A stretch of DNA of 64,000 bases from a virus (taxonomy: Duplodnaviria; Caudoviricetes): positions 6,958 through 70,957 of IMG/VR virus record IMGVR_UViG_3300028048_000004, one strand, 5' to 3'. A program made the translations under genes and the position numbers. The notes beneath the pieces were generated by a model. The model did not search any database and was not told the DNA's origin. It saw nothing but the letters and a program-made list of their open reading frames with translations. Shown here piece after piece: positions 3,168-24,816 of the stretch (within the stretch, counting starts at the first letter, position 1; each line of letters opens with the position of its first letter).

Positions 3168-3200
3168 CTGCCCCAGATGGACTCGAACCATCAAATGCAG
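3168..3200 (-). pseudogene. Orphan 3' half of a tRNA-Gln gene
   Basis: CTG CATTT GATGG TTCGAGT CCATC TGGGGCA G: T-arm plus acceptor strand pairing 7/7 with the 5' half at 3926-3932. Confidence 0.8.
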
Positions 3201-3219
3201 AACATATTCACAATTTTAA

Positions 3220-3291
3220 CAGCGGCAGTAGGAATCGAACCTACATTGTCAGGGTCAAAGCCTGCTGTACTAACCTTTATACTATACCGCT
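3220..3291 (-). tRNA. tRNA-Gln(UUG), intact, no encoded CCA
   Basis: Acceptor AGCGGTA/TGCCGCT; anticodon arm GCAGG-CTTTGAC-CCTGA; T-arm GTAGG-TTCGATT-CCTAC. Confidence 0.85.
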
Positions 3292-3297
3292 ATAAAA

Positions 3298-3747
3298 TTA
3301 CTTTCTGTTTCCAAATTTATCAATGAACTGGTTACCATTAAAACCTCGTAACTTTGCACTAGCACTACACTTTTGACAAAAATCTTTCGACATTTTTCTT
3401 CCCTTATTTACTGGTCCATGTTCCTTAACGTAATTTGCTAATCGCATATTACCTTTACTATGCAAACTTGAATGTTCACATCTTGATAATATCTGTAAAT
3501 TATTCAGTGCATTATTATGTGTATTTTCATCTATATGATGTACAATACAACCACGTGTGTAATCCTGCAAATACTTCATAGCAACAACTGTATGAACACC
3601 AAAAATATGTCTTTTATGATTAGTGTCAAATAATAATACTTGTAAATATTTATTAGACTTAAATGGTTTAATTTCTACTCCATTTTTATACACTCTACCA
3701 AGTTCATCAACATCATAATTTGGAAACATTTCTTGAAAGTTATACAT
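3298..3747 (-). CDS. Free-standing HNH homing endonuclease
   Basis: VHTVVAMKYL...VHHIDENTHNNALNNLQILSRCEHSSLH (HNH_3 type) with basic C-terminal tail. Confidence 0.85.
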   Translation of the reverse strand: MYNFQEMFPNYDVDELGRVYKNGVEIKPFKSNKYLQVLLFDTNHKRHIFGVHTVVAMKYLQDYTRGCIVHHIDENTHNNALNNLQILSRCEHSSLHSKGNMRLANYVKEHGPVNKGRKMSKDFCQKCSASAKLRGFNGNQFIDKFGNRK

Positions 3748-3868
3748 AATACCACTCCTTAAAATATAAAAACGCTATTGGAGTGCATGGTGCGAGCATA
3801 CACTTTTAGACCAATAGCGTTCTTAGCATAATTTAGTGGTGTAAAGTCTCGCACTCTTTACGAGTGAT
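3748..3868 (-). ncRNA. Structured kissing-loop leader RNA, copy 1
   Basis: Hairpin GTAAAG-aGTGCGAGa-CTTTAC; long hairpin CGCTATTGG..GTGTATG-CTCGCAC-CATGCAC..CCAATAGCG followed by T-tract and RBS; the two loops are exactly complementary. Confidence 0.7.
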
Positions 3869-3897
3869 ATTATAACATAACTTTATTAAATTGTAAA
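3869..3897 (-). promoter_or_regulatory. Sigma70-type promoter of the HNH cassette
   Basis: TTTACA-17-TATAAT. Confidence 0.8.
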
Positions 3898-3898
3898 T

Positions 3899-3932
3899 AA
3901 GTGCTGTGCCTTAACCATTTGGCGATGGGGCA
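3899..3932 (-). pseudogene. Orphan 5' half of a tRNA-Gln gene
   Basis: TGCCCCA TC GCC AAATGGT TAAGGC A CAGCA CTT, breaking in the anticodon loop; U1 start typical of tRNA-Gln. Confidence 0.8.
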
Positions 3933-3934
3933 AA

Positions 3935-4570
3935 AATTGTGGCAGAACCATATTCTTTCAAGCACGTTCACTTATTGGCTACTTTGCAATTCCAAACTAA
4001 CTTACTTACTGGAATATCCAATTAGTATATTTTCTACCTAATCCAACGGAGCGACCAACTCTTTGTATATAGTAGGAAACGGTAACAGTTTCAATCCAGT
4101 CTTTGATTAGGTGGGGGTATTCAAGCGTTCAATCTCCTTTTTCATTGCATACTCCAAACTTTCAGCCACCACAAACGGGAGCAGAAGGATTCGAACCTTC
4201 GTTTTCTGATTGATGGTTACCAGACTGTTGCCTTAGACATACTCTAACAAGCACATCACTCTTGTACCCTTTGTCTACACTTACACTCCCATATTGACCG
4301 CCCCTGTCTCGCAAACTCAGGCGGTCATTTCTGACTAAATAATCAGAAAAACTGGCGGCGGTCTTGGCCTTCGACCGCACTTTAATGCTCATTAACAAAC
4401 CAGTCTAAACTGCATGATATATCTACCATGACTAACTTCCAATCAGGTTTTCGTATACTCATATTGGAGTCTTTGCATACTAAGGTCTGCCTTTTCGTTA
4501 ATAACTCATCTGAAATTATTAACTACGCATATCTGCACTATGATAATAGAGGTATTACCAGACCACTCCT
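3935..4570 (-). ncRNA. Candidate large structured ncRNA within the tRNA island
   Basis: Many nested helices and no credible CDS; see findings. Confidence 0.55.
4176..4290 (-). ncRNA. 115-nt tRNA-like domain with an expanded D-arm region
   Basis: Acceptor GGGAGTG/TGCTCCC; canonical T-arm GAAGG-TTCGAAT-CCTTC; no 7-nt anticodon loop. Confidence 0.55.
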
Positions 4571-4572
4571 TA

Positions 4573-4680
4573 TTATGCGGGTAAGGATTTGCACCTTACA
4601 TGAACTGCATTTTCCAAGGCTCTGTCGACTCGACCTATCAGTTCTTATGCTTAAGCGTCTACCTATTCCGCCACCGCATA
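4573..4680 (-). ncRNA. tRNA-Leu-like RNA with non-canonical anticodon arm, copy 1
   Basis: Acceptor TATGCGG/CCGCATA + A73; D-arm GCGGAATAGGTAGACGC; T-arm TAAGG-TGCAAAT-CCTTA. Confidence 0.65.
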
Positions 4681-4737
4681 ACGTAGTCTTTCCCACTGTC
4701 AGACAAAGTCCTCCATTCTTGCACAACGAATGGGGAA

Positions 4738-4811
4738 TCGGGAATACTGGACTTGAACCAGTGACACATGGCTTATAAGGCCACCGCTCTAACCAACTGA
4801 GCTAATTCCCG
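4738..4811 (-). tRNA. tRNA-Ile(UAU)
   Basis: Acceptor CGGGAAT/ATTCCCG; D-arm GCTC/GAGC; anticodon arm GTGGC-CTTATAA-GCCAT; T-arm ACTGG-TTCAAGT-CCAGT. Confidence 0.9.
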
Positions 4812-4909
4812 TGAGTGCGTCTCAGGGGATAGAGGAGGACGCACTGTTGCGGTTCATATCTGCACCCCACAGTAACAGATTGTGCGTTGCTACCACAACA
4901 AAACGCTAA

Positions 4910-4993
4910 TGCGGGTAGTGGGAGTTGAACCCACACGATATTACTATCAGAGGATTTTAAGTCCCCTACGTCTGCCTATTCCGTCATACCCGC
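4910..4993 (-). tRNA. tRNA-Leu(UAA)
   Basis: Acceptor GCGGGTA/TACCCGC + A73; anticodon arm GGGGA-CTTAAAA-TCCTC; long variable arm; T-loop TTCAACT. Confidence 0.9.
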
Positions 4994-5002
4994 CGAACTT
5001 AC

Positions 5003-5167
5003 TTAAAGAATATCGAAAATATAATCATCTTCTAATCCTAAATAATCTTGAATTGCTTCATCGTTTCCGTCCATCAACGACTCTAAGCACTGATCAATTA
5101 AATCATTGGCTTCTTCTTTTGTCATACCATCCCGCTTCACAAGAATATTGACAACATCTTTTCTCAT
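5003..5167 (-). CDS. Small acidic hypothetical protein
   Basis: Start at MRKDVV after GGAGG RBS; ATGA overlap with the upstream gene. Confidence 0.6.
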   Translation of the reverse strand: MRKDVVNILVKRDGMTKEEANDLIDQCLESLMDGNDEAIQDYLGLEDDYIFDIL

Positions 5168-5709
5168 GCTACTTCCTCCTTCTCTGTAATAGCGGACCTG
5201 ATGATCCAACCTTCCCAAACTACATCAACAAGTTTCTGTTTAATTCCGTCTACATCGTTAATATCTAAATCCATAATGAACGGAACTTTTGTAATGCATT
5301 CCGGGCCAATGCCATATTTCTGAGAAATAGGATTTGTCAATGTTCTTCCACACCGCATACACCGAATAACTGGCTCTGCTTGTCCATGTAACTTCATGTA
5401 TACCATTCCACGGGTTTCTTTTTCAATAGTACCAACCATTGTTCTCAATGGCATTGGATTGTTATTATTGAACTTCGACATGAAGTCAAATCCGGGACTA
5501 GCATATTCTGTCATATACTTCTTGACTGTAACACGATACTGTGTCTTGTCGTTTAACGTGTCTACCACGCTCTTAATTGCGTTTTTAGTGTTTGACTGTA
5601 AAATAATACAATCGTTATCTGAAAGTGTCTTAAAATCGAAATTAGACGCTTCTACAGCAGTGTCGTTTATGAGTATTTCACCTTTCCAGTCTTTTAAGAG
5701 ATCTAACAT
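5164..5709 (-). CDS. Hypothetical protein with zinc-ribbon motif (DUF6011-like)
   Basis: CMRCGRTLTNPISQKYGIGPEC. Confidence 0.6.
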   Translation of the reverse strand: MLDLLKDWKGEILINDTAVEASNFDFKTLSDNDCIILQSNTKNAIKSVVDTLNDKTQYRVTVKKYMTEYASPGFDFMSKFNNNNPMPLRTMVGTIEKETRGMVYMKLHGQAEPVIRCMRCGRTLTNPISQKYGIGPECITKVPFIMDLDINDVDGIKQKLVDVVWEGWIIRSAITEKEEVA

Positions 5710-5746
5710 ACTTTAATTGTTTTCTCCTTTCTTGAGTTTTTATGAA

Positions 5747-5851
5747 TGATGCGGGTAAGGATTTGCACCTTACATACAAAGACTCTTGTCTAAGCACCAT
5801 CCTATGTATACAACACTCGGACGGCTCGGCTACCTATTTCGTCACCGCATC
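5747..5851 (-). ncRNA. tRNA-Leu-like RNA with non-canonical anticodon arm, copy 2
   Basis: Acceptor GATGCGG/CCGCATC + A73; same T-arm sequence as copy 1; different middle. Confidence 0.65.
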
Positions 5852-5883
5852 GACTTGTAAACCCCATATCGTTTACATTATGT

Positions 5884-5912
5884 AGTATAACATTTATTTC
5901 TATATTTGTCAA
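5884..5912 (-). promoter_or_regulatory. Promoter driving the tRNA/ncRNA island
   Basis: TTGACA-17-TATACT. Confidence 0.75.
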
Positions 5913-5921
5913 CAACTATTT

Positions 5922-6962
5922 TTAATTTTCTTTCATAACTTTATCTACCAACTTTTCCACACAATTTAATAGTGTCTGATCTGTTTTTAATTTCTCATAT
6001 ACACTGGATTGTCCATGTATCTTACCTTCCAAAAGTTCTCCAGTCTCTATATCTACTATATCAAACCACGCACCAGATTTTTTCACAATGTCATATTTAA
6101 TTGCCACTTCTATTAAATCACGCAGATAATCAATACCAATCTCATAATTAATGGTATAAAAACCAGTACGTCTAACAGGTGGACAGGTTTTGTTTTTGGT
6201 CATGGACATCATAACTATATTACCAACCGGACTCTCCGCAGACCGTGTTAATTCGTTACCCTTATCATCTATGAACTTGCCACGACTAAACTGCATACGA
6301 ACAGCACAAAAATGTTTCCACGCTTTGCCGCCGGGTGTAACTACTCCACCCCATGTACTGTTTAAGTCTTCTCGTATCTGATTGATGCCGATCCCGGTAC
6401 ACTTATGTCTCTGCATAAGCATTTCTATCTTTTTACCAAACAATGTGAGAGACTTCGCTATACCACCATATGTCTTGTCTTCCATTGTCTTTTCAAGTTC
6501 CTGACTAGACATTAATGCACCTATACTGTCAAGTACCCATAATCCTACTTCCCCGGTATCTACGCTGTCACAGATAATTTGAAAAATCTCTTCCGCAGAT
6601 TGAGATTTTGGCTGTAAAATGTACATCTTATCTACATCTACACCGATTTTCTTTGCCCACTCAACATCCAACGTGTTTTCAGCATCTATGTACAAAACAT
6701 CCCTATCATCCCCGGATTTCTGATAGTTTGCAACAATATCTAGCGCAGTTGTTGTTTTCCCACCATGCTCTTCACCGTAAAATTCTGTTATCTTACCTAT
6801 AGGAATGCCGCCGAACGTACAATAGTTCATTCTAGGAGAAGTAAACGGGATACGTTTATAAGAAAATTCACTTAAACCCTGTGTAATGATTTCTTCTTTA
6901 AACCGTTTGTTTGCATTTTTCATAATCTCATCAAGTTTTAATCCCATAAGTAATTCCCTCAT
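5922..6962 (-). CDS. recA: RecA-family recombinase
   Basis: GGIPIGKITEFYGEEHGGKTT; YIDAENTLD; VLDSIGAL; INQIRE; TPGGKAWKH. Confidence 0.95.
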   Translation of the reverse strand: MRELLMGLKLDEIMKNANKRFKEEIITQGLSEFSYKRIPFTSPRMNYCTFGGIPIGKITEFYGEEHGGKTTTALDIVANYQKSGDDRDVLYIDAENTLDVEWAKKIGVDVDKMYILQPKSQSAEEIFQIICDSVDTGEVGLWVLDSIGALMSSQELEKTMEDKTYGGIAKSLTLFGKKIEMLMQRHKCTGIGINQIREDLNSTWGGVVTPGGKAWKHFCAVRMQFSRGKFIDDKGNELTRSAESPVGNIVMMSMTKNKTCPPVRRTGFYTINYEIGIDYLRDLIEVAIKYDIVKKSGAWFDIVDIETGELLEGKIHGQSSVYEKLKTDQTLLNCVEKLVDKVMKEN

Positions 6963-7197
6963 CTAAAATTCTTTTAACAACCTGTTCTGCACGATTTTTA
7001 CCAATACCTTTGACAGACAATAAAATCTCCATAAGATGTTCCTCTGTCAAAGATGCTACGCAATCCTGTGTAGCGTACCTTACACCATCGTCATAAATCG
7101 AACCGCATAAATCCATCAACCAGTGATTAAAACCGTTTACAGACAATTTATGCACCTTTTTATAAGTAGCAAAGTCTATAGGTTTTGCTCTACTCAT
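6931..7197 (-). CDS. Hypothetical protein with a helix-hairpin-helix motif
   Basis: LLSVKGIGKNRAEQV. Confidence 0.55.
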   Translation of the reverse strand: MSRAKPIDFATYKKVHKLSVNGFNHWLMDLCGSIYDDGVRYATQDCVASLTEEHLMEILLSVKGIGKNRAEQVVKRILDEGITYGIKT

Positions 7198-7201
7198 GAT
7201 T

Positions 7202-7837
7202 TCACCCCACTATATCGGCAACATATGGTAATCCACGTAAAATCTCCACAAAGTCTCTCCACTCATCCAACTTATGTCCAGTACGCTCTTTTATAATCTT
7301 GAACACTGTTTCATAAGACATACAAACTGTTCTTCGCTGATTGTAAGAGGATGGAAGTAACTGAATTAACTGCCACCAGTATTCTTTATTCTTTGTACTC
7401 AAATATTGATTCCTATACTGATTCATCAAATTTATAACACCATTAAGAATAATAATAGATGTCCCTTTTATTAAATGCTCATGACTAAAATCGTCTAATT
7501 CAAATTCTTTGGCGGCAATCTTATGCATAGTAGAACATGATACCTGTGATTTACCTACAGTATAACGATCCATTTCTTTCCACCAGTATAACGGCGCTGT
7601 AATATCCATTGATACTTGTATCATTCTAGCATATGTCCTATGCTCTGTTCCTGCTTTATATAATCTTCTCATGAGATTTAAATCATTTTCTCCAATTCTT
7701 GCTTGGATTTCTGGGCTTCCGTTTGCACCTGTCACAACAAAAATACTATCACTTTTATCCCAACTATTCATAGGATTGCGAAGTCCTCGGATTGCTCCTT
7801 CAAAATTAGATACTTCAACGTGTTCCACTCTTATCAT
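7202..7837 (-). CDS. ThyX-like (Thy1 fold) protein
   Basis: AIRGLRNPMNSWDKSDS, HRTYARMIQVSMDITAPLYWWKEMDRY, LLPSSYNQRR; canonical RHRxxS motif not present. Confidence 0.6.
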   Translation of the reverse strand: MIRVEHVEVSNFEGAIRGLRNPMNSWDKSDSIFVVTGANGSPEIQARIGENDLNLMRRLYKAGTEHRTYARMIQVSMDITAPLYWWKEMDRYTVGKSQVSCSTMHKIAAKEFELDDFSHEHLIKGTSIIILNGVINLMNQYRNQYLSTKNKEYWWQLIQLLPSSYNQRRTVCMSYETVFKIIKERTGHKLDEWRDFVEILRGLPYVADIVG

Positions 7838-8369
7838 ACTTCTTCACCTCAAATCTTCCATATTGATTACCAATAAATTTTTGCAGACCGTTTTCAAATG
7901 AATGTAATGTATTATCACTATAAGTACACCACTCTAAATTCTCCGCCCTGTTATCATTTTTAATACCATTCTTATGATTAACACACGGTAAATCATTTGG
8001 GTTTGGAATAAAGCACTTTGCTATAACTCTATGTGACTGCTCTGTACTATTATCACCTGTGTTTATCCATAAATAATCATTGTTATCTGTTCTTTGTTTC
8101 ATTATTTTACAATTACGAATAGTAATAAACTGTCCTGTTGAAAAAACTAATATTCCCTTATACAATACGGCATCATCTAATTTCAAATTATTAATTTTGC
8201 AACATTCTTTTATCTTTTGAATTTTTCTATAACTTAATTCCAAAATAGCATCAAATTCTGTTGCAACTGTTATATAAGGTTTTGAATGTAACTCATATCC
8301 ATATTTGTTCTTATGATAACCTTTATTTTGATAATGATTAAATAGATATTTTAACAACTCTAATTCCAT
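7815..8369 (-). CDS. Free-standing HNH homing endonuclease
   Basis: HRVIAKCFIPNPNDLPCVNHKNGIKNDNRAENLEWCT. Confidence 0.9.
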   Translation of the reverse strand: MELELLKYLFNHYQNKGYHKNKYGYELHSKPYITVATEFDAILELSYRKIQKIKECCKINNLKLDDAVLYKGILVFSTGQFITIRNCKIMKQRTDNNDYLWINTGDNSTEQSHRVIAKCFIPNPNDLPCVNHKNGIKNDNRAENLEWCTYSDNTLHSFENGLQKFIGNQYGRFEVKKYDKSGTR

Positions 8370-8422
8370 GCCACGAATAGCATGTTTAAATTCCCATACA
8401 TCTATTTTTCTACTTTAATCAT
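8367..8422 (-). pseudogene. Frameshifted remnant of the original thyX-like 5' end
   Basis: ATG overlapping the mazG stop reads MIKVEK*; the shifted frame reads IDVWEFKHAIRGM, homologous to MIRVEHVEVSNFEGAIRGL of 7202-7837. Confidence 0.8.
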
Positions 8423-8751: not shown

Positions 8752-9278
8752 TTACCACTACCTCCGATTCTTGTTAATTCATATTCTGCCATTCTACGTG
8801 ATAATACTTTTTTACAGCTTGATAAAAGTTCCTGTGCGTTTTCTACCTTTGCTTTCATAGTTTTATAGGCTCTTGTATAAGACGATGAAATTATGTATTC
8901 TTCCTGACTTGCTAATTCTGCAAGCGAATCTTTATCTGCCACAGTTCCTTTTTCCTGACTTGCTCTAGCAGTATGATACATTTCTTTATATACTGCTTTT
9001 GCTATATCATCACGAATGCCTAACTGTTCACACATTCCACCAGCAAAATAAATATATGTGGAAAGATTAAGACAAAAATCATCAAGTTCATCTGTTGTTG
9101 GCGGATTCTCTCCATCTTTAAGACAGTCCTTAATAAACAGCACATACTTATCTAATGATGATACGTATGGAGATATGATTGAACTAACAATATCATCAAT
9201 TATTAAAGAATTTTTTTCTACATTCTCCCTAATACTGTTTATATTATCCATATTTAATTCATCAAGTGACATTTTCAT
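8748..9278 (-). CDS. Helical protein, possibly a UvsY-like recombination mediator
   Basis: Start at MKMSLD; C-terminal coiled coil GTVADKDSLAE...KAKVENAQELLSSCKKVL; located between recU and recA. Confidence 0.45.
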   Translation of the reverse strand: MKMSLDELNMDNINSIRENVEKNSLIIDDIVSSIISPYVSSLDKYVLFIKDCLKDGENPPTTDELDDFCLNLSTYIYFAGGMCEQLGIRDDIAKAVYKEMYHTARASQEKGTVADKDSLAELASQEEYIISSSYTRAYKTMKAKVENAQELLSSCKKVLSRRMAEYELTRIGGSGK

Positions 9279-9807
9279 TTTTACGCTTTTCCTCCCATCT
9301 ACGCTTTTGACTTTCAGACATTTTTCGTTTAGTCTCCTCCGAAGCAGGGCCGTACACTCTATTTCTCGCCTCCTTTTTACCATCACTTATTAACTTTTTA
9401 CGTTTAACCCAATTTTTCTTAACGCCATCTATTCTATGTGCTGTTGCATTATTATAATGATTATTGTAATAGTAAGAACACCACTCTAAATTATTTATGG
9501 AATTATTTGAAGGATTTTCATCTTTGTGATTAACACACGGTAAATTATCTGGATTTGGAATAAATGCTTCGGCTACTAAACGATGCACAAGTTTAAATTT
9601 ACTATCTACACCTTTTTGTAATCGAACTCTATAATAACCATTTCCTTGATTTACAGGTGTTAAAATTTTCTCACTGACTGGATATTTGTTATATCCATGA
9701 CTGCGATTTTTTCTAATTATAGTTCGTCTACAACTTTTTACATTACCTAAATTACTTACTTGATACAAGCCCTCATATCCAATAACATCTTTCCAAACTT
9801 CTTGCAT
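9262..9807 (-). CDS. NUMOD4-HNH homing endonuclease
   Basis: WKDVIGYEGLYQVSNLGNVKS (NUMOD4); VHRLVAEAFIPNPDNLPCVNHKDENPSNNSINNLEWC. Confidence 0.9.
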   Translation of the reverse strand: MQEVWKDVIGYEGLYQVSNLGNVKSCRRTIIRKNRSHGYNKYPVSEKILTPVNQGNGYYRVRLQKGVDSKFKLVHRLVAEAFIPNPDNLPCVNHKDENPSNNSINNLEWCSYYYNNHYNNATAHRIDGVKKNWVKRKKLISDGKKEARNRVYGPASEETKRKMSESQKRRWEEKRKNENVT

Positions 9808-9927
9808 AATAACCTCCTAAAATATAAAAACGCTTGTGGAGTGTATGGGTCGAGCATACACTTTTAGACCACAAGCGATTTTAACACTTTTAGAATTTGT
9901 TGTAAGTCTCGACCTCTTACAGAGGTT
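9808..9927 (-). ncRNA. Structured kissing-loop leader RNA, copy 2
   Basis: GTAAG-aGGTCGAGa-CTTAC and CGCTTGTGG..GTGTATG-CTCGACC-CATACAC..CCACAAGCG-TTTTT; homologous to 3748-3868 with compensatory changes. Confidence 0.7.
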
Positions 9928-9956
9928 ATTATACTATATTATTTAAAATGTGTAAA
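9928..9956 (-). promoter_or_regulatory. Sigma70-type promoter of the NUMOD4-HNH cassette
   Basis: TTTACA-17-TATAAT, overlapping the recU 3' end. Confidence 0.8.
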
Positions 9957-11758: not shown

Positions 11759-11790
11759 AGTTATCTCCTCCTATGTTGTACTACTCTAAT

Positions 11791-11872: not shown

Positions 11873-12973
11873 TCAGTTATCCATTCTATCATCCTCAAGT
11901 AATGCTACAACAATTTTGATGTTTCCATCAACCAATTTTATTGCATTATCTCCGCCATAATAAATCTCAATCACATCATTCTGAATTGCTTTAATTTCCT
12001 GCATAAGCATCTGAATATCTATAGCACAAGTAAAATCTCTAAAATTAGTGCTCGATACATAATTAATAATTTCTACGCCGCTCGCCGCTTTAGAAGAAAC
12101 TTGTAATCCATTTTGCGTAAAAGTAAGGTGGATTGCATTTTTGTCGTATGTACCAACAAACAGTGAGAGTCTATCCAAAAGCTGAAGAATAGCATTTTTT
12201 GACACGGAACAAAAACTATCAAACTTGGAATCTACTAATCCCATAATAGCCTCAATTGCATAATCATCGAGGCCTTCCATGAACTTGCCATACACGATAC
12301 AATCTGGGGTACTACACACAATGTCTGTATCGGTCATGTACACTGTAATTTTCTCATCGGTTATGACAGCAAGTAAATCCATAAACTCAGCGCTGACTAA
12401 TCTCGGATTGGTAAACAACGGTACATCCATGCTTGCAATTTTATAAGTATCTGTGGCAACTACATGATCTCCAACATAATACCCAGTATAACACGGATTT
12501 TCCAATGTTACAGCAAGTGCGGGTTTAATTGTATCCAAAATAACTTGTACAGTAGACCGGTTAATAGTTTTTTGAGTCCACGTATGTAAATCTGCCTTAG
12601 TGAGTGGATCGGGATATTTAATCGGTTCTCCGTCTTCATCTAACGGCAACTCAATCTTATAAGCTCCGTTTCCTTTCACATTAAGCACCCAAACACCAGA
12701 TGCTACTTCCAAGGTGACATTCTCACTTGTCATTTTGGAAATGAGTTTTGAAAAAACATTCGCATCAACAACTACATAAAAATCATCTGCTACAACTTTA
12801 TCCTCGACTACATATAAATAGTTTGTGGCATCTGTAGTAATGAGTGTGAATTTATTATCTTTCACTTCAATTGCCATAAGACTGGTTAAGGGAATGAGTT
12901 TATTATTACCAACACCCTTAATTGCCTTAGACACCATCTCTTTCAGCTTCTCTGTTTTCATTGTCAGTTTCAT
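11873..12973 (-). CDS. dnaN: DNA polymerase III beta-like sliding clamp
   Basis: About 366 aa from MKLTMK; N-terminal pattern like the beta clamp (KLIPLTSLMAIEVKDNKFTLITTD); three-domain length. Confidence 0.75.
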   Translation of the reverse strand: MKLTMKTEKLKEMVSKAIKGVGNNKLIPLTSLMAIEVKDNKFTLITTDATNYLYVVEDKVVADDFYVVVDANVFSKLISKMTSENVTLEVASGVWVLNVKGNGAYKIELPLDEDGEPIKYPDPLTKADLHTWTQKTINRSTVQVILDTIKPALAVTLENPCYTGYYVGDHVVATDTYKIASMDVPLFTNPRLVSAEFMDLLAVITDEKITVYMTDTDIVCSTPDCIVYGKFMEGLDDYAIEAIMGLVDSKFDSFCSVSKNAILQLLDRLSLFVGTYDKNAIHLTFTQNGLQVSSKAASGVEIINYVSSTNFRDFTCAIDIQMLMQEIKAIQNDVIEIYYGGDNAIKLVDGNIKIVVALLEDDRMDN

Positions 12974-16597: not shown

Positions 16598-16600
16598 TGA

Positions 16601-17059: not shown

Positions 17060-17412
17060 GATAGACTTACATCCTTTCTATAAATAAGCTCACATCCGTT
17101 CTCTGCATCCTCACTGACGGTTATCTCAATATCACGATTATATCCATAATTCTGCTGAACGTATGATAATATCTGATTCGCTATTGTTTCGCAAGAATTA
17201 TTTGTAAGAAAATCAAGCTTAAGATTTTTTTCTACTTCGTGCTTAAACATAATGAACTCAATTTCTCTATCGTTATTAAAAACTTCCACCTTGACCTTAA
17301 TATGTGCAACATGTCTATGTGGATATCTTAAATAACTTACCTCATCTGGCGCATCTTTATATTGATGAATAAATTCGGTCTGAGTTGTTATATAAATAAA
17401 TACTTGCTTCAT
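17056..17412 (-). CDS. QueD/PTPS-like T-fold protein
   Basis: H...HRH...SCETIA...VSEDAENG; start at MKQVF with ATGA overlap to the polymerase stop. Confidence 0.65.
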   Translation of the reverse strand: MKQVFIYITTQTEFIHQYKDAPDEVSYLRYPHRHVAHIKVKVEVFNNDREIEFIMFKHEVEKNLKLDFLTNNSCETIANQILSYVQQNYGYNRDIEITVSEDAENGCELIYRKDVSLS

Positions 17413-18113
17413 ACTGGGTCTCCGTACCACGCTTTGGTAATTTCGACATCACACTTGATAGGAATTGTTAATTTACTCATAGCCGCTCTTGACATAAGTT
17501 CTGCGAATCGCTTAGCGCATTCTTTCACATTCTCTTCTGGACACTCTGCTATCAACTCATCATGTACAGGTATAAGAAGTCTGAAACCTAACTCTTTTAG
17601 TCTTTCATCATTACCGACTAAAATCATTGCTAATTTGCTCATGTCTGCGGCTGATCCTTGAATACGTGCGTTTACGCATTGTCTTTGTGCATCTGCTATT
17701 TTAGCTCCGTTATCAACAATCCATATTCCTTCTTTATTTGCTTCTTCAAAAATTCTACGCTTCTGTCCGAAATAACAATTTCGTAGTTTTCTAATATAGC
17801 GTTCCTGCACATCTTCCGGGACATCCGTTTCTGCATCTTCATCTCCAGAGCCAAAGTCAAGCAAATCAGTGTCGGGTCGTACTCCGTCTTTCCACTTAAA
17901 CTCAAACTCAGGCAGTTGCAAATCAGGCAATCTTCTTTTTCTACCCCACAAGGTAGTAACATATCCTTTTTCATAAGCCATATCCAAACTATCTTCTTCA
18001 AATTTCGGTATTGCAGGAAATCCTTTGAATACAGAATCTTTTATTGCTTGTGCTTTTTTTGTTGTAGTTCCAAGTTGTTCAGCAATGGAAGGCACTCCTC
18101 TGCCATACAAAAC
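17409..18113 (-). CDS. polA: Family A DNA polymerase, exon 2
   Basis: Begins VLYGRG after the intron's terminal G; GYVTTLWGRKR, NARIQGSAAD, VHDEL (motif C). Confidence 0.9.
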   Translation of the reverse strand, partial: VLYGRGVPSIAEQLGTTTKKAQAIKDSVFKGFPAIPKFEEDSLDMAYEKGYVTTLWGRKRRLPDLQLPEFEFKWKDGVRPDTDLLDFGSGDEDAETDVPEDVQERYIRKLRNCYFGQKRRIFEEANKEGIWIVDNGAKIADAQRQCVNARIQGSAADMSKLAMILVGNDERLKELGFRLLIPVHDELIAECPEENVKECAKRFAELMSRAAMSKLTIPIKCDVEITKAWYGDPV

Positions 18114-18201
18114 CGTTCAACACTATATTTTCATATAGTACAGACTATATCATCAACCATTTAGGTTGCTATGCACTTCGGACAGTAACTCATCCTCTGC
18201 C

Positions 18202-18951
18202 CTACTCCCCTTCGGGATAGTCGTTACACTTTTCCCCTACCCAACCATATCCGTAAGCATTTGTTTGCTTGCCATATATTGTTTGATATATTCTATATGC
18301 AATCGAACTTTCTTTTGCTTTGGATAAATTATTGGAACTAATATATTCACAAACATCTTGAATTGTACTAAACCTATTGATTTCTTTTCCTGTACTTAAA
18401 TCTATCTGAACAAATATATATTTCCTATGAGCAATACTATTCTTCTGTTTAGTTTCTTCTGTATGATGTTTACCATAAAAAGAATTTTTTAAACCCGTTC
18501 TTTTCTTTGCCCATTCACTTAATTTTTTCTTGTGTTCTTCTGATTTAGGTCTACCCATTTGAGCAAAACTTATTTTTCTTGCCCGTTCTTCTGTATATAT
18601 ATCAGAATTATGATTTTCAGAAATCTTTTGTTTAGTTTCCTCTGAATGATGATACCCTCGTATTCCTCCACCACCAATAGTATTATTGTACCCGTGTTCA
18701 AACGTATCATATAATCCTATATAATATATTTCCCATGTATCTAATTCATCTTCTGGTAAATTATCTTTTAATATTGTAATATCAAAATTTTCTTTACCAT
18801 ATTTACGAATTGAGTTATACAGATACAAATTTCTATCAGTAGTATCAGCAATATGAAAATGCTCTTTTATACGTCTATCATCATCAAATTTTGTTTGTCC
18901 TATATATTTCTTTCCGTTAATTTTATTCGTTATACAGTATATATATCCCAT
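18202..18951 (-). CDS. Intron-encoded GIY-YIG homing endonuclease with NUMOD3 repeats
   Basis: GYIYCITNKINGKKYIGQT; YGKENF; HHSEETKQKIS and HHTEETKQK repeats. Confidence 0.9.
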   Translation of the reverse strand: MGYIYCITNKINGKKYIGQTKFDDDRRIKEHFHIADTTDRNLYLYNSIRKYGKENFDITILKDNLPEDELDTWEIYYIGLYDTFEHGYNNTIGGGGIRGYHHSEETKQKISENHNSDIYTEERARKISFAQMGRPKSEEHKKKLSEWAKKRTGLKNSFYGKHHTEETKQKNSIAHRKYIFVQIDLSTGKEINRFSTIQDVCEYISSNNLSKAKESSIAYRIYQTIYGKQTNAYGYGWVGEKCNDYPEGE

Positions 18952-18971
18952 AGTATATTACCCCCAATAAG

Positions 18972-19000
18972 AATATAACACACCGTACAACTATTGTCAA
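18972..19000 (-). promoter_or_regulatory. Intron-internal promoter for the GIY-YIG gene
   Basis: TTGACA-17-TATATT. Confidence 0.65.
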
Positions 19001-19145
19001 GTAAGTTATTTAGCACGGGATTGGCATATCTTTCGACTTAGCTTTCCCCGTTAGCACTGAAATTTATTTCAGCACACCCATGAGTAATATGGTTCACATA
19101 GTTTGCTTATGCTATTACTAACATAAGGGGCATTTTGTTTAGTCT

Positions 19146-20738
19146 ACCCAAAAGTATGGATTTTGCTTGTGACCTTCTGTTTTTGCCTTCAGGATTCGTT
19201 GTTCCATCAGGTCGGAACTCAAGGCAGTTATCATAGCTTGTATTAAAGGACAATGCCGCAATTTCTGCATATAAATCCTTTCCTTCTTGATATGCTTTGA
19301 TCATCTTTGGATCACTGCACATCTGAGTCATAACCTTTGGCTCTTGTTGTGAATAGTCACTTGACATTAAAACATATCCGTCAGCTGCCACAAACATCTT
19401 TCTAATATCTTTATTATGGCTAGGAATATTTTGAAGATTAGGGTCACTGCTTGAAAATCTTCCTGTATCTGCTCCATACTGATTAAAACTACAATGTATT
19501 CTTCCATCTTTTGGATTTACACATCCTGGCAATTTATCAATATAAGTAGATACTAACTTTGACATTTCACGATAATCCAAAATTGCTTTTGCTATTGGAC
19601 TATCAATCTTCTGTAAAATTGCTTCTCCTGTCCCTCTAGGACTTTTTGGATCTGGAGGTTCAACCTGCATAATATCGTACAACAGAGTTGCTATTTGAGT
19701 AGGACTACCGATATTAATAGGAGTATCAAGTTTATGATTTACATTTTTCTTTTTATATTCTTCTATCTCTTTATCATAAAGAGAACACACTTTATAAAAC
19801 TCTTGTGTTTTTTCCGCTAGTAATCTGTTATACTTTTCGGATAACTTTTGCTGATACTCAAAATCAAACTTCACCCCGTTATCTTCCATATCACAAACTA
19901 CTTTAATACATGGCATTTCAATGTTGAAAAATACCCAGGATACACCATTCATACCATTTCTATCTTCATTTGGTTTTGTTTCATCATAATACAAATACTG
20001 CTTTTGATACTGATACAATTCATATGTAATAATTGCATCATGTGCCGCATAAAGATAAAATGTTTGAATTGGTATTTTGTCCGCCGTTATTCCTTTAAAC
20101 AGAGTATCAAACTTAAATTCATCTTCTTTGCCGTCAAGTACATATTTTTGATGTAATGCTTTAAGTCCTTTTGATTCTTCATTTTCGTTAAGAAGTCTAC
20201 CTGCTAAATAACAATCCCATGTACAATAAATATCTTTAACACCTAATTGATTTCTTATTACACGAATATCAAATTTGGCATTAAACATGATTATGTCTGG
20301 ATGATACTTCAACAGCATATCAAATTGATTTGCCACCTGTTTCTCTGTCAACTGATTTTCCACTCGCACACCAGTTACATAAGAAACATGATTGATTGGA
20401 ACATACGCAGGTTTATGATTTGGTGTATAAATACATAATCCGACAATGCTATCCAAAATTGGATCGAGTCCCGTTGTTTCTGTATCTATACTGATTACAC
20501 CATTATCAATACAAAACGAAAAATATTTGTGTAATAATTCTTCCGATGTAAGAATAACATAATCATCTTTAAACTTTCCAAGATGTGTTTCAACCATTGC
20601 TTTAATCTGATTTATCTGTCCGAGCAGACCACTACCTTTTACGGTAGTGGTTGCTCTTGTCTTAGATTTAGATTTTGTAGCAATGGATTTATCCTGTTCT
20701 CTTCCGGGACGTTTTGGAACATTAAATAGTGCCATCAT
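19146..20738 (-). CDS. polA: Family A DNA polymerase, exon 1 (3'-5' exonuclease plus polymerase)
   Basis: SIDTETTG, FNAKFD, YAAHDA exonuclease motifs; TGRFSSSDPNLQNIP; SDYSQQEP (motif A); RRSQAKSILLG (motif B). Spliced product about 765 aa. Confidence 0.92.
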
Positions 20739-21016: not shown

Positions 21017-21029
21017 CTCTCATTCCTCC

Positions 21030-21704: not shown

Positions 21705-21724
21705 AGTTTCAATTTTCCTTTCTT

Positions 21725-22117
21725 TTAATATTCAATATACCATAACCCACAATCACTATCAAGTTTGGGGGTATATTCCTTATCTCGAATAAATTTTGAA
21801 GTTTCTTTGTTATACTGTATAGACAGCACGCGTAACTTATTCTTATGTTTAGCATTAGTAGGAATTGTTAATTTATATGCGGAATCGGACTCACCACAAA
21901 ACATAAAATACAACCGATTTCCAGCAAGTGCATAAACACAATAATTATTGCTACTATACAATGTATCACAGCTTCTAAATCTAAAAACTACTTTCTTTGT
22001 GCCGTGACCCTTATTCATACTGGAACAACACACATTGGGATATGAATAAGTTCTGCCGACACTGCTATATCCACCTCTTCTACATTTTTTCTGAAAAACA
22101 AGATTTTCTATTTTCAT
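21725..22117 (-). CDS. Hypothetical protein
   Basis: Follows promoter and AAGGAG RBS. Confidence 0.55.
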   Translation of the reverse strand: MKIENLVFQKKCRRGGYSSVGRTYSYPNVCCSSMNKGHGTKKVVFRFRSCDTLYSSNNYCVYALAGNRLYFMFCGESDSAYKLTIPTNAKHKNKLRVLSIQYNKETSKFIRDKEYTPKLDSDCGLWYIEY

Positions 22118-22166
22118 AGTGTTCTCCTTTCGTTTTAGAGTTTGCTGTGTTCTTTACTACTCTTAT

Positions 22167-22195
22167 ATTATAATACATATTTCTATATATGTCAA
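22167..22195 (-). promoter_or_regulatory. Sigma70-type promoter
   Basis: TTGACA-17-TATAAT. Confidence 0.8.
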
Positions 22196-22212
22196 CTACT
22201 ATTTTAACTTAT

Positions 22213-22485
22213 TTATTCTTCACACGAACACACTAGTTTCGGCACAAATTCATCATACTTCTGCTCTAACTCTTTCTCAAGTCCCTGTAACTCATCTAAC
22301 CTATTATTTCTTCTTAATAAAGAGTCTTGCTGATACTCCATAGATATAACTATCTGTTTCCAATAATGTACAAGTTCTTGATTGGCATAATTTAATTGCT
22401 GTGATGCTTCGACAAACTCAGTTTGATGTTTTGCATAATTTCTTAATTCATCTTCATTCATATGGTTAATTACTTCATCAAACAT
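22213..22485 (-). CDS. Hypothetical protein
   Basis: ORF track; coupled to neighbour. Confidence 0.5.
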   Translation of the reverse strand: MFDEVINHMNEDELRNYAKHQTEFVEASQQLNYANQELVHYWKQIVISMEYQQDSLLRRNNRLDELQGLEKELEQKYDEFVPKLVCSCEE

Positions 22486-22486
22486 T

Positions 22487-22837
22487 CTAATACCTCCAAT
22501 TCTTAAAGGTTTTTAACCAATCTTCATAACTCATCTTTTCAGAACCAAGTACAGTACACTCTGTTTCACAATATTTAGCCAAAGACTCGATTGTTTTAAA
22601 TACAGGAGATATGGGCGAACCCTCTGATGTAGTTTCCCAAAGCTGATATCCATCACCTTTTGGTGGATCAAGTTCAAAATCTGGACAACCATAATCTTTG
22701 AATTTTAATCCCTTTAATCTGGCATACAACTTACAATCATCACAATTCCCGCCACATAAATGATGTAAATATCCGTACCATATCTTATTTATGGGCCAAT
22801 CAAAATCTAATGGTACTCTTTTTAATTCCCTTCCCAT
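22487..22837 (-). CDS. Hypothetical protein
   Basis: MGRELKRVPLDFDWP...GYQLWETTSEGSPISPVF, a recognisable conserved phage hypothetical pattern. Confidence 0.6.
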   Translation of the reverse strand: MGRELKRVPLDFDWPINKIWYGYLHHLCGGNCDDCKLYARLKGLKFKDYGCPDFELDPPKGDGYQLWETTSEGSPISPVFKTIESLAKYCETECTVLGSEKMSYEDWLKTFKNWRY

Positions 22838-22840
22838 CGT

Positions 22841-23038
22841 TTAGAACACCTCCTCAAGTTGCATAAGTTCTTCTTTGGTACATTCATTAGCGTCCTTTCT
22901 TCCTTTCGGAAAAATATACTCTGTTACTATCTTTCTATTCTGCATATTCATTCTTATTCTTTTTCTTGCGGCTAATCCGCTTTCATCCATATCTGTTGCA
23001 AGAATTATTTTTCTACATGGTAATTCTCTTAGCTGTTC
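22841..23038 (-). pseudogene. Orphan 3' remnant of the original primase gene (65 codons, no start)
   Basis: EQLRELPCRKIILATDMDESGLAARKRI...KIVT...KDANECTKEELMQLEEVF*, paralogous to the C-terminus of 23842-24816. Confidence 0.88.
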
Positions 23039-23840
23039 TTCCTTTATGATAGCCTTCTGGAATATCGTCTGTAGTTTTCAAACGTATATTATTTATTCCA
23101 TTTGTTACCCACATCCAAACACCTTTTTCTCCCTTATTATACGGCTCTTTTCCTTTCATAGGATTCTGCCATCCGCTTGCATATCTTTCTTTTAATAACT
23201 GTGATTTTAATTTTCGTGTTTCTTCTGATTGCTTTGTACCTACTAACTTTTGCCTTATCTTTTCTTTTGTTTCTTCTGTATGACAACCTGTAAAACCAGA
23301 ACTTCCTTTCTTAAACATTCCATCATTTCTAAAATCTGGATGTTCTCTATGAAATTTTTTCTTTGCTTCACTTCTTGTTTTATCTCGTTCTGGTGTATGT
23401 AAATATCCTTCAATAAACCCATCGTCTAAATACTTTTGTAATTCAGATTGTTTCACATATTTTTCGATTTCACCATTATTTATAACAGTGCGTCCGGACA
23501 TAGACATTTTCATTTTCTCCCGTCTATGTTCTTTTTCAGCATCAGTTAATCCAGAAAATGTATCTCCACCATCACCACCTTTAGAAATATTATATCCGAT
23601 AAACATATTATCACTATGGTGTATGTGAATATAAATCTTTTCAAATCTATTTATATCAGAACGTGTTTCACACCATTTCAACAATTCAACTTTGAAATTC
23701 TCAATACCATATTTATCAAATGCTCTACGAATTAACTTACCGCTACCCTTATATTCTTTATCAAATACTTGTGATTTATGCTGACCTATATAAATCTTGC
23801 CGTTTATTAAATTTGTTGTCTTATAAATATACCCATACAT
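23013..23840 (-). CDS. Free-standing GIY-YIG homing endonuclease
   Basis: GYIYKTTNLINGKIYIGQH; YKGSG; NUMOD3-like HTEETKEKIR. Confidence 0.9.
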   Translation of the reverse strand: MYGYIYKTTNLINGKIYIGQHKSQVFDKEYKGSGKLIRRAFDKYGIENFKVELLKWCETRSDINRFEKIYIHIHHSDNMFIGYNISKGGDGGDTFSGLTDAEKEHRREKMKMSMSGRTVINNGEIEKYVKQSELQKYLDDGFIEGYLHTPERDKTRSEAKKKFHREHPDFRNDGMFKKGSSGFTGCHTEETKEKIRQKLVGTKQSEETRKLKSQLLKERYASGWQNPMKGKEPYNKGEKGVWMWVTNGINNIRLKTTDDIPEGYHKGRTAKRITM

Positions 23841-23841
23841 A

Positions 23842-24816
23842 CTAAAAAACTTCTCCTAACGCATAAAATTCTTCTCTTGTCATATCATTCATATCTTTAG
23901 CATGGTCTGGATATGTTCTATAATCTAACTGGGTGACGATTTTATTATTTATTTCCTTTCTCAACCTTATTCTTGCTTTTTTGCCGGCATCATCTTTATC
24001 AGTTGCCAATATAACTTTTCTACACGGAAGTTTCTTTATCTGTGCAATAGATAATTCATTACCCAAACCATTTAATGCTACTGCATATTTATTATAACAC
24101 CAAATAGTTAAAGCGTCAAGCATACTTTCACAAATATAAACTTCATCTGGAAACTTCTCTAACCGACTTAACTCATACAATCCGTAAAGTGGTTTTTCTA
24201 CTCCTTCCGGGTAATGAAAAAACTTATTTTTGACAGAACGTCTTGCAACAAATAGGCAATTACCATTAACATCCCTAACAGGAAAAGTGATGCAATCGGT
24301 ATCACTATCATAACCAATATCAAATAATTCAATAACATCATCTGTTAATCCTCTTTTATACATATATGGATGTGTATATCTATATTTATCTAATTCTTCT
24401 TCCGTAACATACCTTGTACGATTATTATGGCTAACAGATTTATTATCACGGTAAAAATCAAGTGATACATCTTTTCTCTCCTCCACTTGTACTGTAGCAA
24501 AATTCTTTAATAACCACTGCCACCCAAATTTACCTACAATATCATCTGTGTACCCGAAACAATGAGATATTACTTCCTGTAAAGAATGCACTTCACCACA
24601 GGCAAAACAGTGAAAAATCCCATCCTCTTTTCGTATTCCGGCAGACGGTCTACGTTCTTGTCCACCGCTGTGGTATGGACATTGAACCATAACATGAGTT
24701 GATGTCGGCTTCATTTTTTGCAATAGCAAAACATTATTTGCAGATAATTGATTCCTTAATTCCATTAAAATGTCAATTAATTCTACACTAAACTGAACAT
24801 CATTAATTATCATCAC
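23842..24816 (-). CDS. dnaG: DNA primase (CHC2 zinc finger + TOPRIM)
   Basis: QCPYH...HCFAC; ICESMLDAL; ATDKDDAG; KDMND. Confidence 0.9.
   Translation of the reverse strand: MMIINDVQFSVELIDILMELRNQLSANNVLLLQKMKPTSTHVMVQCPYHSGGQERRPSAGIRKEDGIFHCFACGEVHSLQEVISHCFGYTDDIVGKFGWQWLLKNFATVQVEERKDVSLDFYRDNKSVSHNNRTRYVTEEELDKYRYTHPYMYKRGLTDDVIELFDIGYDSDTDCITFPVRDVNGNCLFVARRSVKNKFFHYPEGVEKPLYGLYELSRLEKFPDEVYICESMLDALTIWCYNKYAVALNGLGNELSIAQIKKLPCRKVILATDKDDAGKKARIRLRKEINNKIVTQLDYRTYPDHAKDMNDMTREEFYALGEVF

Follow-up and report, generated by a model that had tools for sequence, protein, structure and literature searches.

The 64,000-nt window analyzed here, which belongs to the 71-kb genome of an uncultured phage, has on its minus strand three sites at which an endonuclease gene lies within another gene, with two versions of the same piece of that gene on its flanks. 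The part that was cut off, and that is supplied anew, is the whole tRNA-Gln at the first site, codons 1-19 of a ThyX-fold gene at the second, and the last 66 codons of the primase at the third. The features are as follows (labels such as L116 denote related loci).

3899..3932, minus strand: native displaced 5' half of tRNA-Gln, with acceptor, D arm, 5' anticodon stem, and loop CTT (97% identity to L116)
3748..3898, minus strand: promoter-like element and structured leader (hairpin, T-run, ribosome-binding site) before the HNH gene (77% identity to two leaders)
3298..3747, minus strand: HNH endonuclease gene, 149 aa (Pfam HNH_3)
3219..3292, minus strand: replacement tRNA-Gln(UUG) of the cassette (ARAGORN and Rfam, 62.6 bits)
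3168..3202, minus strand: native tRNA-Gln 3' half, with 3' anticodon stem, variable loop, T arm, acceptor, and G73 (90% identity to L116)
8367..8422, minus strand: native codons 1-19 of the ThyX-like gene, displaced (match to the nuclease-free consensus)
7815..8369, minus strand: HNH endonuclease gene, 184 aa, inserted after codon 19 (Pfam HNH_3)
7745..7837, minus strand: re-coded ThyX-like 5' end (codons 1-19, 7837-7781) and conserved RNPMNSWDKSDS block (shared tract)
7202..7837, minus strand: intact ThyX-fold gene, 211 aa, host of the second cassette (PHROG 6721)
23842..24816, minus strand: intact primase, 324 aa, host of the third cassette (Pfam Toprim_2, Zn_ribbon_DnaG)
23845..24042, minus strand: foreign re-coded last 66 codons of the primase, copy A (identity to L001 and L002)
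23013..23840, minus strand: SegE-like GIY-YIG endonuclease gene, 275 aa (Pfam SegE_GIY-YIG)
22841..23035, minus strand: displaced native last 64 primase codons and stop, copy B (85-92% aa identity to nuclease-free C-termini)

At the first site, the tRNA-Gln gene is split in its anticodon loop by the promoter and leader, the HNH gene, and a complete, divergent tRNA-Gln. The acceptor strands of the severed halves, TGCCCCA and TGGGGCA, still pair at 7/7 positions, and the halves are 97% and 90% identical (blastn E values of 1e-8 and 2e-12) to the tRNA-Gln(UUG) gene of L116, which stands unbroken in the same synteny. Apart from this replacement, the genome has no intact tRNA-Gln. Identity of the replacement is 58-60% with the native gene and 78-84% with its cassette counterparts in L197 and L198. 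Homologues of the HNH protein, with 55-66% identity, occupy the same split-tRNA-Gln layout in L197, L198, L199, and L112. The order of 5' half, HNH gene, replacement tRNA, and 3' half recurs in L197, L198, and L112, with differing native acceptor stems, and in L199 the 5' half and HNH gene are visible up to the contig end. Cassette tRNAs are 72-84% identical to each other, as against 54-60% to their own native genes. The leader, which is 77% identical both to the one before a further HNH gene (9807-9262) and to L116 12494-12340, is an optional module, since it is also found in L198 and is absent in L197, L112, and L199.

At the second site, an HNH gene follows codon 19 of the ThyX-fold gene and is followed in turn by a re-coded copy of codons 1-19. 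The severed 5' end survives as a 56-nt remnant (8422-8367), the start of which overlaps the mazG stop codon and the final codon of which, ATG, is the HNH start; it reads MIKVEK, suffers a 1-nt deletion in an A-run, and continues as DVWEFKHAIRGM, matching the consensus of nuclease-free relatives, MIKVE(K/N)(I/V)DVWGF(E/K)HAIRGM. The intact gene (7837-7202), with MIRVEHVEVSNFEGAIRGL at its N-terminus, starts inside the HNH ORF (8369-7815), and the ribosome-binding site of this re-coded gene sits within the HNH 3' end. The re-coded 5' end and the remnant are 61% identical, with a longest exact run of 5 nt. An N-terminus of the form MIRV..VEV(S/F)NFEGAIRGL is present in every locus with this HNH gene and in none of the nuclease-free loci shown. 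Between the window and L048, L073, and L077, the HNH protein is 94-97% identical but the ThyX-like genes just 55-59%, and nucleotide identity of 86-100% to L073 and L077 is confined to about 8385-7752, the RNPMNSWDKSDS block ending the shared tract. The junction falls at codon 19 in three different ThyX backgrounds, and each remnant matches its own lineage. In L077, the HNH gene is in frame and is read from the ribosome-binding site and ATG of the host gene. The frameshift in the window's remnant means that its HNH gene has lost the host start, and no obvious ribosome-binding site precedes its ATG; this enzyme may be inactive in the window.

The designation of this host gene as ThyX-like, made in the sequence-only reading, holds at the level of the predicted fold only. 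An AlphaFold2 model of the product of 7202..7837 (mean pLDDT of 81) has top Foldseek matches that are all ThyX (E of 2e-5, TM of 0.5). On the other hand, the protein has no Pfam Thy1 match at an E value of ≤0.01, and the RHRxxSxxxxSxR (RHR..S) motif is absent, the corresponding stretch being MDRYTVGKSQVSCSTMH; on both counts, membership in the flavin-dependent thymidylate synthases (Pfam Thy1) was rejected. A PDB sequence search, profile included, gave no match either.

At the third site, the last 66 primase codons are foreign, the GIY-YIG gene comes next, and 64 native codons lie just downstream. Primase residues 259-324 match the translation of 23035-22844 with 49% identity over 67 aa (E of 2e-13). 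At the amino acid level, copy A is 92% identical to the primase end of L001, 88% identical to that of L002, and 47-50% identical to those of nuclease-free relatives, the primase bodies of L001 and L002 being only 69% and 64% identical to that of the window; the GIY-YIG protein is 92% identical in L001 and 77% in L002. In a phylogenetic tree, copy A groups with L001 and L002 (96/95 support), and copy B nests in the native clade. Nucleotide identity to L001 reaches 81-100% only from 24190 to 22990, the shared tract beginning upstream of copy A at about 24190. The GIY-YIG gene starts 1 nt past the primase stop, and its own stop codon is within the remnant. Copy B lacks a start codon and is free of frameshifts, and the gene that follows (ATG at 22837) has its ribosome-binding site, GAGGAGG, within the final codons of copy B. 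The copy B pN/pS of 0.10 equals the native-versus-native value, indicating no decay, and its synonymous divergence from the native genes is that seen among them. Recent insertion fits this undecayed state, and selection for another reason fits it equally. The remnant is not always kept, since L002 and L004 have a nuclease after the primase with no remnant.

The three sites share an anatomy. The cassettes are 88-97% identical between phages and their host genes only 55-70%; the remnants match nuclease-free phages at 85-92%; and the junctions are the same in differing backgrounds. Spare copy and remnant have 58-61% nucleotide identity, with longest exact runs of 5-9 nt, and the junction sequence differs between native and replacement allele. 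No cassette lies in an intron or intein: the free-standing nuclease ORFs (3747-3298, 8369-7815, and 23840-23013; Pfam HNH_3 or GIY-YIG) directly abut the host gene and are not in frame as inteins would be, and the primase and ThyX-like ORFs align over their full length with relatives. The original observation is confirmed at all three sites, and comparison with relatives strongly supports its core idea, an endonuclease and a re-coded target piece that travel as one unit, three times in one genome and splicing-free. As read from the sequences, the tRNA-Gln, ThyX-like, and primase genes would stay functional thanks to the re-coded spare piece. The accompanying description of the three endonucleases as unrelated was overstated: there are indeed two HNH enzymes and one GIY-YIG enzyme, but the former both have the HNH_3 domain and are therefore not unrelated.

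A refutation test set beforehand asked whether such remnants are commoner beside nucleases than beside other ORFs. They are: in 200 related loci, displaced native gene ends adjoin 8/39 nuclease ORFs versus 4/1294 other ORFs, though these counts are not independent events because the loci were fetched via homologues of the window's own genes and include related ones. Among the window's relatives, the displaced ends fall into no fewer than seven protein-gene element/site combinations; counting the tRNA-Gln cassette makes it eight.

We propose with considerable confidence that the three sites are homing-endonuclease cassettes of a replace-the-piece type, each combining a free-standing nuclease with a re-coded copy of the target part that was cut off. 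During co-infection with a relative, the nuclease would cut the latter's native allele at the insertion point or close to it, and repair of the break would be templated by the cassette-bearing genome. One crossover would lie in the host-gene body and the other in the displaced native fragment, which would serve as the far homology arm. The recipient would thereby acquire the nuclease gene together with an unbroken chimeric gene, its former piece being displaced. Such arms would be very short, about 35 nt for the tRNA halves and 57 nt for the 5' remnant. The re-coding is likely to have two effects: it would abolish a recognition site that an unaltered copy would restore at the junction, making the supplied copy immune, and, the longest exact run being just 5-9 nt, it would deny the two copies the identity needed for a recombination that deletes the nuclease. 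Local expression signals are commandeered as well, with the ThyX-site HNH gene predicted to use the ribosome-binding site and start codon of its host gene, the GIY-YIG gene probably coupled to the stop of the re-coded primase, and the primase remnant retaining the ribosome-binding site of the gene that follows.

The most serious alternative is that the remnants are accidental scars without a role, still awaiting deletion and left by ordinary free-standing nucleases, which spread by intronless homing with co-conversion and occasional one-sided or illegitimate repair, the spare piece being merely the donor allele and no component of a defined mobile unit. The absence of a remnant after the nuclease-bearing primases of L002 and L004, the decay of the L017 remnant, and the frameshift at the window's ThyX site are all in keeping with this, as is the co-conversion tract upstream of copy A, which exceeds the duplicated part as in T4 Seg homing. 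However, scars of random origin would not yield the excess beside nucleases found in the survey; nor would they be expected to give a codon-identical junction in three ThyX backgrounds with remnants that each match their own lineage, or the same tRNA-Gln layout in five loci whose HNH proteins share only 55-66% identity. Further, nuclease frames take their start (L077) or stop (the window's GIY-YIG gene) from remnant sequence, and divergence of the spare piece in every case goes well beyond that of an ordinary allele. We hence regard the scar explanation as unlikely.

A second alternative, that the inserts are spliced out as group I introns or inteins or through rejoining of a split tRNA, the remnants being used exons, gains some plausibility from the company that the cassettes keep. 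As the sequence-only reading had pointed out, this genome also has the classical solutions: PolA is interrupted by an intron-like 1032-nt insert (19145-18114) with a GIY-YIG gene, the boundaries of which, GGU| and G|, restore LLG|VLYGRG, and the SNF2 helicase bears a split intein. Moreover, the anticodon loop is the site of bacterial tRNA group I introns, and the acceptor halves of the split tRNA remain perfectly complementary. Yet the host ORFs are complete without splicing, the primase remnant comes after a stop codon and in a different frame from the GIY-YIG gene, and the ThyX-site remnant is frameshifted. The two tRNA halves cannot rebuild an anticodon loop, and the only intact tRNA-Gln of the genome comes from the cassette itself. 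A group I intron was rejected for all three cassettes, which had no Rfam intron match at an E value of ≤5 and whose flanks would yield no functional tRNA or ORF on joining. Splicing is accordingly very improbable. Least probable of all is a local tandem duplication at nuclease insertion with fast divergence of one copy and no horizontal transfer of the spare piece, which would suit the collinear copies abutting the nuclease gene on both sides but is already contradicted by incongruent identities: identity to L001 is 92% for the expressed end of the primase against 69% for its body, the primase remnant is as close as 85-92% to nuclease-free relatives and as diverged from them at synonymous sites as they are from one another, and the re-coded ThyX N-terminus is common to all bearers of this HNH gene and to no nuclease-free locus shown.

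Replace-the-piece homing cassettes, on the reading preferred here, have close parallels in eukaryotes. The WHO elements at the aldolase gene FBA1 of Torulaspora and Lachancea yeasts (Coughlan et al. 2020, PMC7282813) comprise an endonuclease gene and a resistance-conferring replacement of the host gene 3' end, with the old 3' end pushed downstream as a proposed homology arm, no splicing, and a chimeric host gene with discordant phylogeny; the homing model put forward for them is identical and is accompanied by experimental cleavage data. The primase cassette reproduces this layout point for point. WHO elements differ in having intein-derived LAGLIDADG-zinc-finger enzymes in a nuclear meiotic setting, as opposed to HNH and GIY-YIG enzymes in a phage, and in replacing 3' ends only, whereas the phage adds a 5'-end version with the host start codon and a whole-RNA-gene version. 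A recent preprint (Osborne et al. 2026, doi 10.64898/2026.08.13.744650) treats replacement-type homing as a third category, "considerably more rare" than introns and inteins; it discusses yeasts only and leaves phages unmentioned. The mobile-ORF gene hybrids of fungal mitochondria, reported for atp6 of Allomyces macrogynus and atp6, atp9, cox2, and nad3 of Glomus (Beaudet et al. 2013, PMC3630166), are described in the passages of that paper devoted to them as a foreign C-terminus, an endonuclease ORF, and then the native C*-terminus, the native piece being closest to the sister species and the inserted piece divergent. In these same passages, they are confined to organelle genomes and C-terminal cases, with no 5'-end or tRNA replacement and no use of a host start codon described. 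Partial 3' duplications of atp6 and cob have also been found beside GIY-YIG or LAGLIDADG ORFs (PMC6279837). The three phage cassettes display the traits of both groups, namely, an abutting free-standing nuclease, a divergent supplied copy, a native fragment on the far side, and discordant co-inheritance.

Among phages, the free-standing Seg and Mob nucleases of the T4/T5 type share with the cassettes their enzyme families (SegE-like GIY-YIG and HNH), a spread from phage to phage during co-infection that co-converts flanking markers, and a location within tRNA clusters, as in SegB (PMC2988022). The T4-type systems differ in comprising intergenic nucleases and gene-splitting insertions, such as mobE in nrdA and mobA in gene 60 (PMC2988022); the hallmark of the type, a nuclease between intact, undivided genes without duplication, is absent from the three cassettes. 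Group I introns and inteins with homing endonucleases resemble them in their site-specific insertion at the best-conserved motif of an essential gene, which still functions, but the cassettes have no RNA or protein splicing, function being restored by a spare copy at the DNA level. We found no paper in the phage literature describing the present layout; word searches returned none of "duplicat," "remnant," and "pseudogene" in a T4 review (PMC2988022) and neither "remnant" nor "pseudogene" in Barth et al. 2023 (PMC10448857).

The suggestion in the sequence-only reading that the cassettes form a new general class does not stand, as the same organization and homing model have been published for the yeast and mitochondrial elements. 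The match in mechanism makes them a known kind, of which the 5'-end form, using the host start codon, and the whole-tRNA form are variants. The claim of that reading that the cassettes diversify core replication genes holds only at the level of mosaic gene ends. The occurrence of at least eight element/site combinations in the relatives suggests that such elements are frequent in the setting richest in homing endonucleases. We see an even chance that replace-the-piece homing is a common phage lifestyle in essential genes, with 5'-end and whole-tRNA extensions, functional displaced fragments, and a major share in generating mosaic gene ends. If so, it would be no yeast or mitochondrial rarity, and both phage extensions would be undescribed elsewhere; the displaced fragments would be working parts, providing homology arms and carrying signals for expression of the nuclease or of the following gene; and repeated invasion of the same motifs would be a main source of mosaic ends in phage replication genes. 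Chimeric core genes made by such cassettes distort phage phylogenies, and their start-less or frameshifted fragments are skipped or misread by annotation pipelines. The cassettes also point to candidate natural triples of nuclease, target, and immune allele.

A single phage genome thus combines three replacement elements with an intron-like insert, a split intein, and a nuclease of the classical intergenic type, the HNH gene at 9807-9262. The SegE_GIY-YIG and HNH_3 Pfam matches are those of the three cassette nucleases, and NUMOD3 and NUMOD4 are found in the other two nucleases of the window (18951-18202 and 9807-9262) and in related cassettes.

The phage genome is a single contig of 70,957 bp with a terminal overlap of 127 bp and is therefore probably complete, and the window covers most of it. 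The genes in the window lie almost all on the minus strand and encode, among others, RecA, a sliding-clamp-like protein, PolA, primase, DnaB, an SNF2 helicase, portal and terminase; the structural genes are preceded by a known RNA motif:

51234-51337, minus strand: Rfam GP20-a RNA motif (67.6 bits), upstream of structural genes

A megablast search with the region found no close relative among GenBank phages. The nearest named phages, e.g., Clostridium phage phiCTP1, share about 40% protein identity, and closer relatives came from IMG/VR and metagenome contigs (numbered below as loci, e.g., L001). All five HNH or GIY-YIG genes of the genome fall within the window. The sequence-only reading held that three of these nucleases each interrupt a conserved gene and are accompanied both by a divergent substitute (the re-coded or spare piece) and by the displaced native piece (the remnant). 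This layout is real at all three sites, namely, a tRNA-Gln gene (HNH), a ThyX-like gene (HNH), and the primase gene (GIY-YIG).

ARAGORN and Rfam called three tRNAs, one of which, Gln(UUG) at 3292-3219, has the halves of a second tRNA on either side of it:

3932-3899, minus strand: 5' half of the second tRNA, acceptor strand complementary to the 3' half
3202-3168, minus strand: 3' half of the second tRNA, acceptor strand complementary to the 5' half

Intact versions of the split tRNA, retrieved by an exact-pattern search, are all Gln(UUG). The copy in L116 has the same Leu-Ile-Gln synteny, matches the window halves with 97% (5' half) and 90% (3' half) identity, and lacks the ~700 bp separating them. 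This insert comprises a promoter-like element with a leader, the HNH gene (3747-3298), and the replacement tRNA. Four other contigs (L197, L198, L199, and L112) carry HNH homologues (55-66% identity) that start right after a tRNA-Gln 5' half and are followed, wherever the contig extends that far, by a replacement tRNA and the matching 3' half. The native acceptor stems vary by locus (TGCCCCA, AGGGCTA, TGCCCGT, TGAGGTG), and their strands pair inside each locus that has both halves on the contig. The cassette tRNAs are 72-84% identical among themselves versus 54-60% to their own native genes, and the cassette version is the sole intact tRNA-Gln of the genome. Rejoining the halves, with many junctions tried, gave tRNA-like folds with an inconsistent anticodon; hence, the anticodon loop has been lost.

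The tRNA island (4173-4724, minus strand) contains tRNA-like pieces not called by ARAGORN, including a Leu-like scaffold (~4680-4573) and a T-arm/acceptor-like end (~4200-4172). About 280 nt of it (4573-4294) is missing in L116, which, for its part, contains an additional odd tRNA (7241-7310).

At the second site, ORF 7837-7202 has no Pfam match, and sequence searches of the PDB with its protein found nothing; only the fold search was informative, with the predicted structure (pLDDT 81) matching ThyX structures only. In nuclease-free relatives the ThyX-like protein starts with MIKVE(K/N)(I/V)DVWGF(E/K)HAIRGM, and in L033 its gene adjoins mazG directly. The window retains this start:

8422-8367, minus strand: native ThyX-like start, a remnant with a one-base deletion

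Codon 19 of the remnant (ATG) serves as the start of the HNH ORF (8369-7815), whose 3' end overlaps the new ThyX-like start, reading MIRVEHVEVSNFEGAIRGL. In L048, L073, and L077, the same HNH (94-97% identity) is found upstream of ThyX-like genes with no more than 55-59% identity, all of which start in the re-coded way (MIRV...VFNFEGAIRGL). At the nucleotide level, the window matches L073 and L077 with 86-100% identity solely over ~8385 to 7752. The native-type remnant is retained locus by locus, each with its own version and the same terminal codon. The L077 remnant is in frame and, because its codon 19 is Ile, it is the remnant's own RBS and ATG that the HNH uses there. A different enzyme, of the GIY-YIG type, occupies nearly the same place in L063, with a 14-codon remnant. 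The ThyX-like gene behind it (L063:1300-2090) begins with the re-coded motif of the HNH cassette (VEVFNFEGAIRG), which suggests, from the shared motif, either successive invasions or nuclease exchange on a common resistant piece.

At the third site, primase residues 259-324 match 23035-22844, 3' of the GIY-YIG gene (49% identity, E 2e-13), and the C-termini of nuclease-free relatives are 85-92% identical to this remnant versus 47-50% to the expressed end. Two loci, L001 and L002, share the GIY-YIG (92% and 77% identity, respectively) and the expressed primase end (92% and 88%) of the window, with primase bodies of only 69% and 64% identity. L001 has its own, different remnant, and its identity to the window is 81-100% over 24190 to 22990 and ~40-70% outside. 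In a tree, the expressed end clusters with those of L001 and L002 (support 96/95), and the remnant falls among native ends. The remnant starts just upstream of the Toprim motif LPCRKIILATD; the stop codon of the GIY-YIG gene falls within it, and its last codons hold the GAGGAGG RBS of the next gene. The re-coded end, in turn, carries the GGAG ahead of the GIY-YIG start. Other nucleases have entered primase genes elsewhere: NUMOD4-HNH in L009 and L017, with native remnants of 29 and 24 codons, and GIY-YIG/NUMOD3 in L003, with a 5' remnant of 41 codons. Since synonymous sites are saturated among the relatives sampled, the pN/pS of the window remnant gives no date for the insertion. Within the remnant (22841-22990, minus strand), an in-frame ATG (M of DMDESG) opens a 49-codon ORF that stops 3 nt ahead of the start of the next gene; its translation, if it occurs, could preserve coupling to that gene.

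At each of the three sites, the insertion falls in the locally best conserved stretch: the anticodon arm, the AIRGM/RNPMNSW block (here and below, the slash marks a junction), and the Toprim motif. Homing enzymes typically target such conserved sites. Spare pieces and remnants share 58-61% identity with exact runs of no more than 9 nt. Judging from the sequences, this would not let the two recombine and would alter any recognition site spanning the junction. By analogy, the simplest model for the three sites is the scheme of WHO elements, in which the nuclease would cut the native allele, repair would copy its gene along with the presumably resistant piece, and the displaced fragment would supply the distal homology. 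For WHO elements, this model has been put forward and in part tested (PMC7282813).

The expectation that remnants accumulate beside nucleases was borne out in a survey of 200 related loci (1.9 Mb). For ORFs of 100-350 aa, the ends (terminal 60-75 residues) of homologues of the neighboring genes were searched on the far side of the ORF with a cut-off of 25 bits or more. A displaced native gene end lies beside 8 of 39 nuclease ORFs versus 4 of 1294 others, counts that, since the sample favors homologues of window genes and includes related loci, express an association and not a frequency for phages at large. They leave out one intron-split PolA and take in one HNH_5 protein missed by the profiles; as the HNH and GIY profiles drifted into each other, only the union of both sets was used. 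A preliminary survey that compared the flanks of each ORF directly was weak (3/35 versus 1/1231), because 19-codon remnants fell below noise and tandem paralogues inflated the controls, and was superseded by the search with native ends. In one new case, from L116, a SegE-like GIY-YIG is accompanied by a 5' remnant of a clamp-loader-like gene; the window (1511-459) represents the empty site for that gene.

The interpretation drawn from these sites was right in substance, but the class is not new. The same organization, for 3' ends, is seen in the mORF gene hybrids of fungal mitochondria, as described by Beaudet et al. 2013 (PMC3630166), and in the yeast WHO elements (Coughlan 2020, PMC7282813). 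A 2026 WHO preprint (doi 10.64898/2026.08.13.744650) counts the replacement type as a third category of homing elements, rarer than the others, and makes no mention of phages. A review of T4 mobile elements (PMC2988022) and a 2023 study of ICP1 nucleases (PMC10448857) describe intergenic and gene-splitting nucleases, and word searches of the two found no remnants or duplicated ends. Literature searches, mostly covering work outside subscription journals, found no phage description of the layout. What we describe is a phage version of a known class, to which two variants are added: one replaces the 5' end and captures the host start codon, the other replaces a whole tRNA.

Further loci of the same genome carry a nuclease gene or an intein:

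9262-9807, minus strand: NUMOD4-HNH gene, exactly between two genes that adjoin in L033
18114-19145, minus strand: PolA insert of 1032 nt within PolA (17409-20738), interrupting motif B
29870-31988, minus strand: SNF2-type helicase as two overlapping ORFs, with intein N-part and C-part

The first, also found in L038 (82% identity), is a classical intergenic free-standing nuclease; a search of its surroundings found no hidden remnant. A leader of ~130-150 nt, 77% identical between 3748-3898 and 9808-9938 (minus strand), precedes two different HNH genes and recurs in L198 and in L116 (about 12340-12494). It contains a long hairpin, a T-run, and an RBS, and is an optional module, absent from the tRNA cassettes of L197, L112, and L199.

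The PolA insert carries a GIY-YIG/NUMOD3 gene under a TTGACA-17-TATATT promoter of its own, and PolA is uninterrupted in more than 60 relatives. The insert boundaries are GGU/ and ...AACG/, and rejoining would give LLG/VLYGRG. A P1-like pairing of GGGU with GCCC and a GATATAGTC element also occur in L188, where a different GIY-YIG occupies the same PolA site. A permissive Rfam search of the region and of five related loci detected no intron; the insert is probably a group I intron that escapes Rfam. L188 also has a weak match to a type I hammerhead ribozyme (L188:1907-1969; 28.4 bits, below the gathering score of 34; E 0.005).

The first ORF of the SNF2 helicase ends in an intein N-part starting right after DEIHK/C, and the second opens with an RBS and ATG of its own and an intein C-part that ends in HN/C. 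The intein is naturally split (a fractured gene), and no nuclease gene separates its halves.
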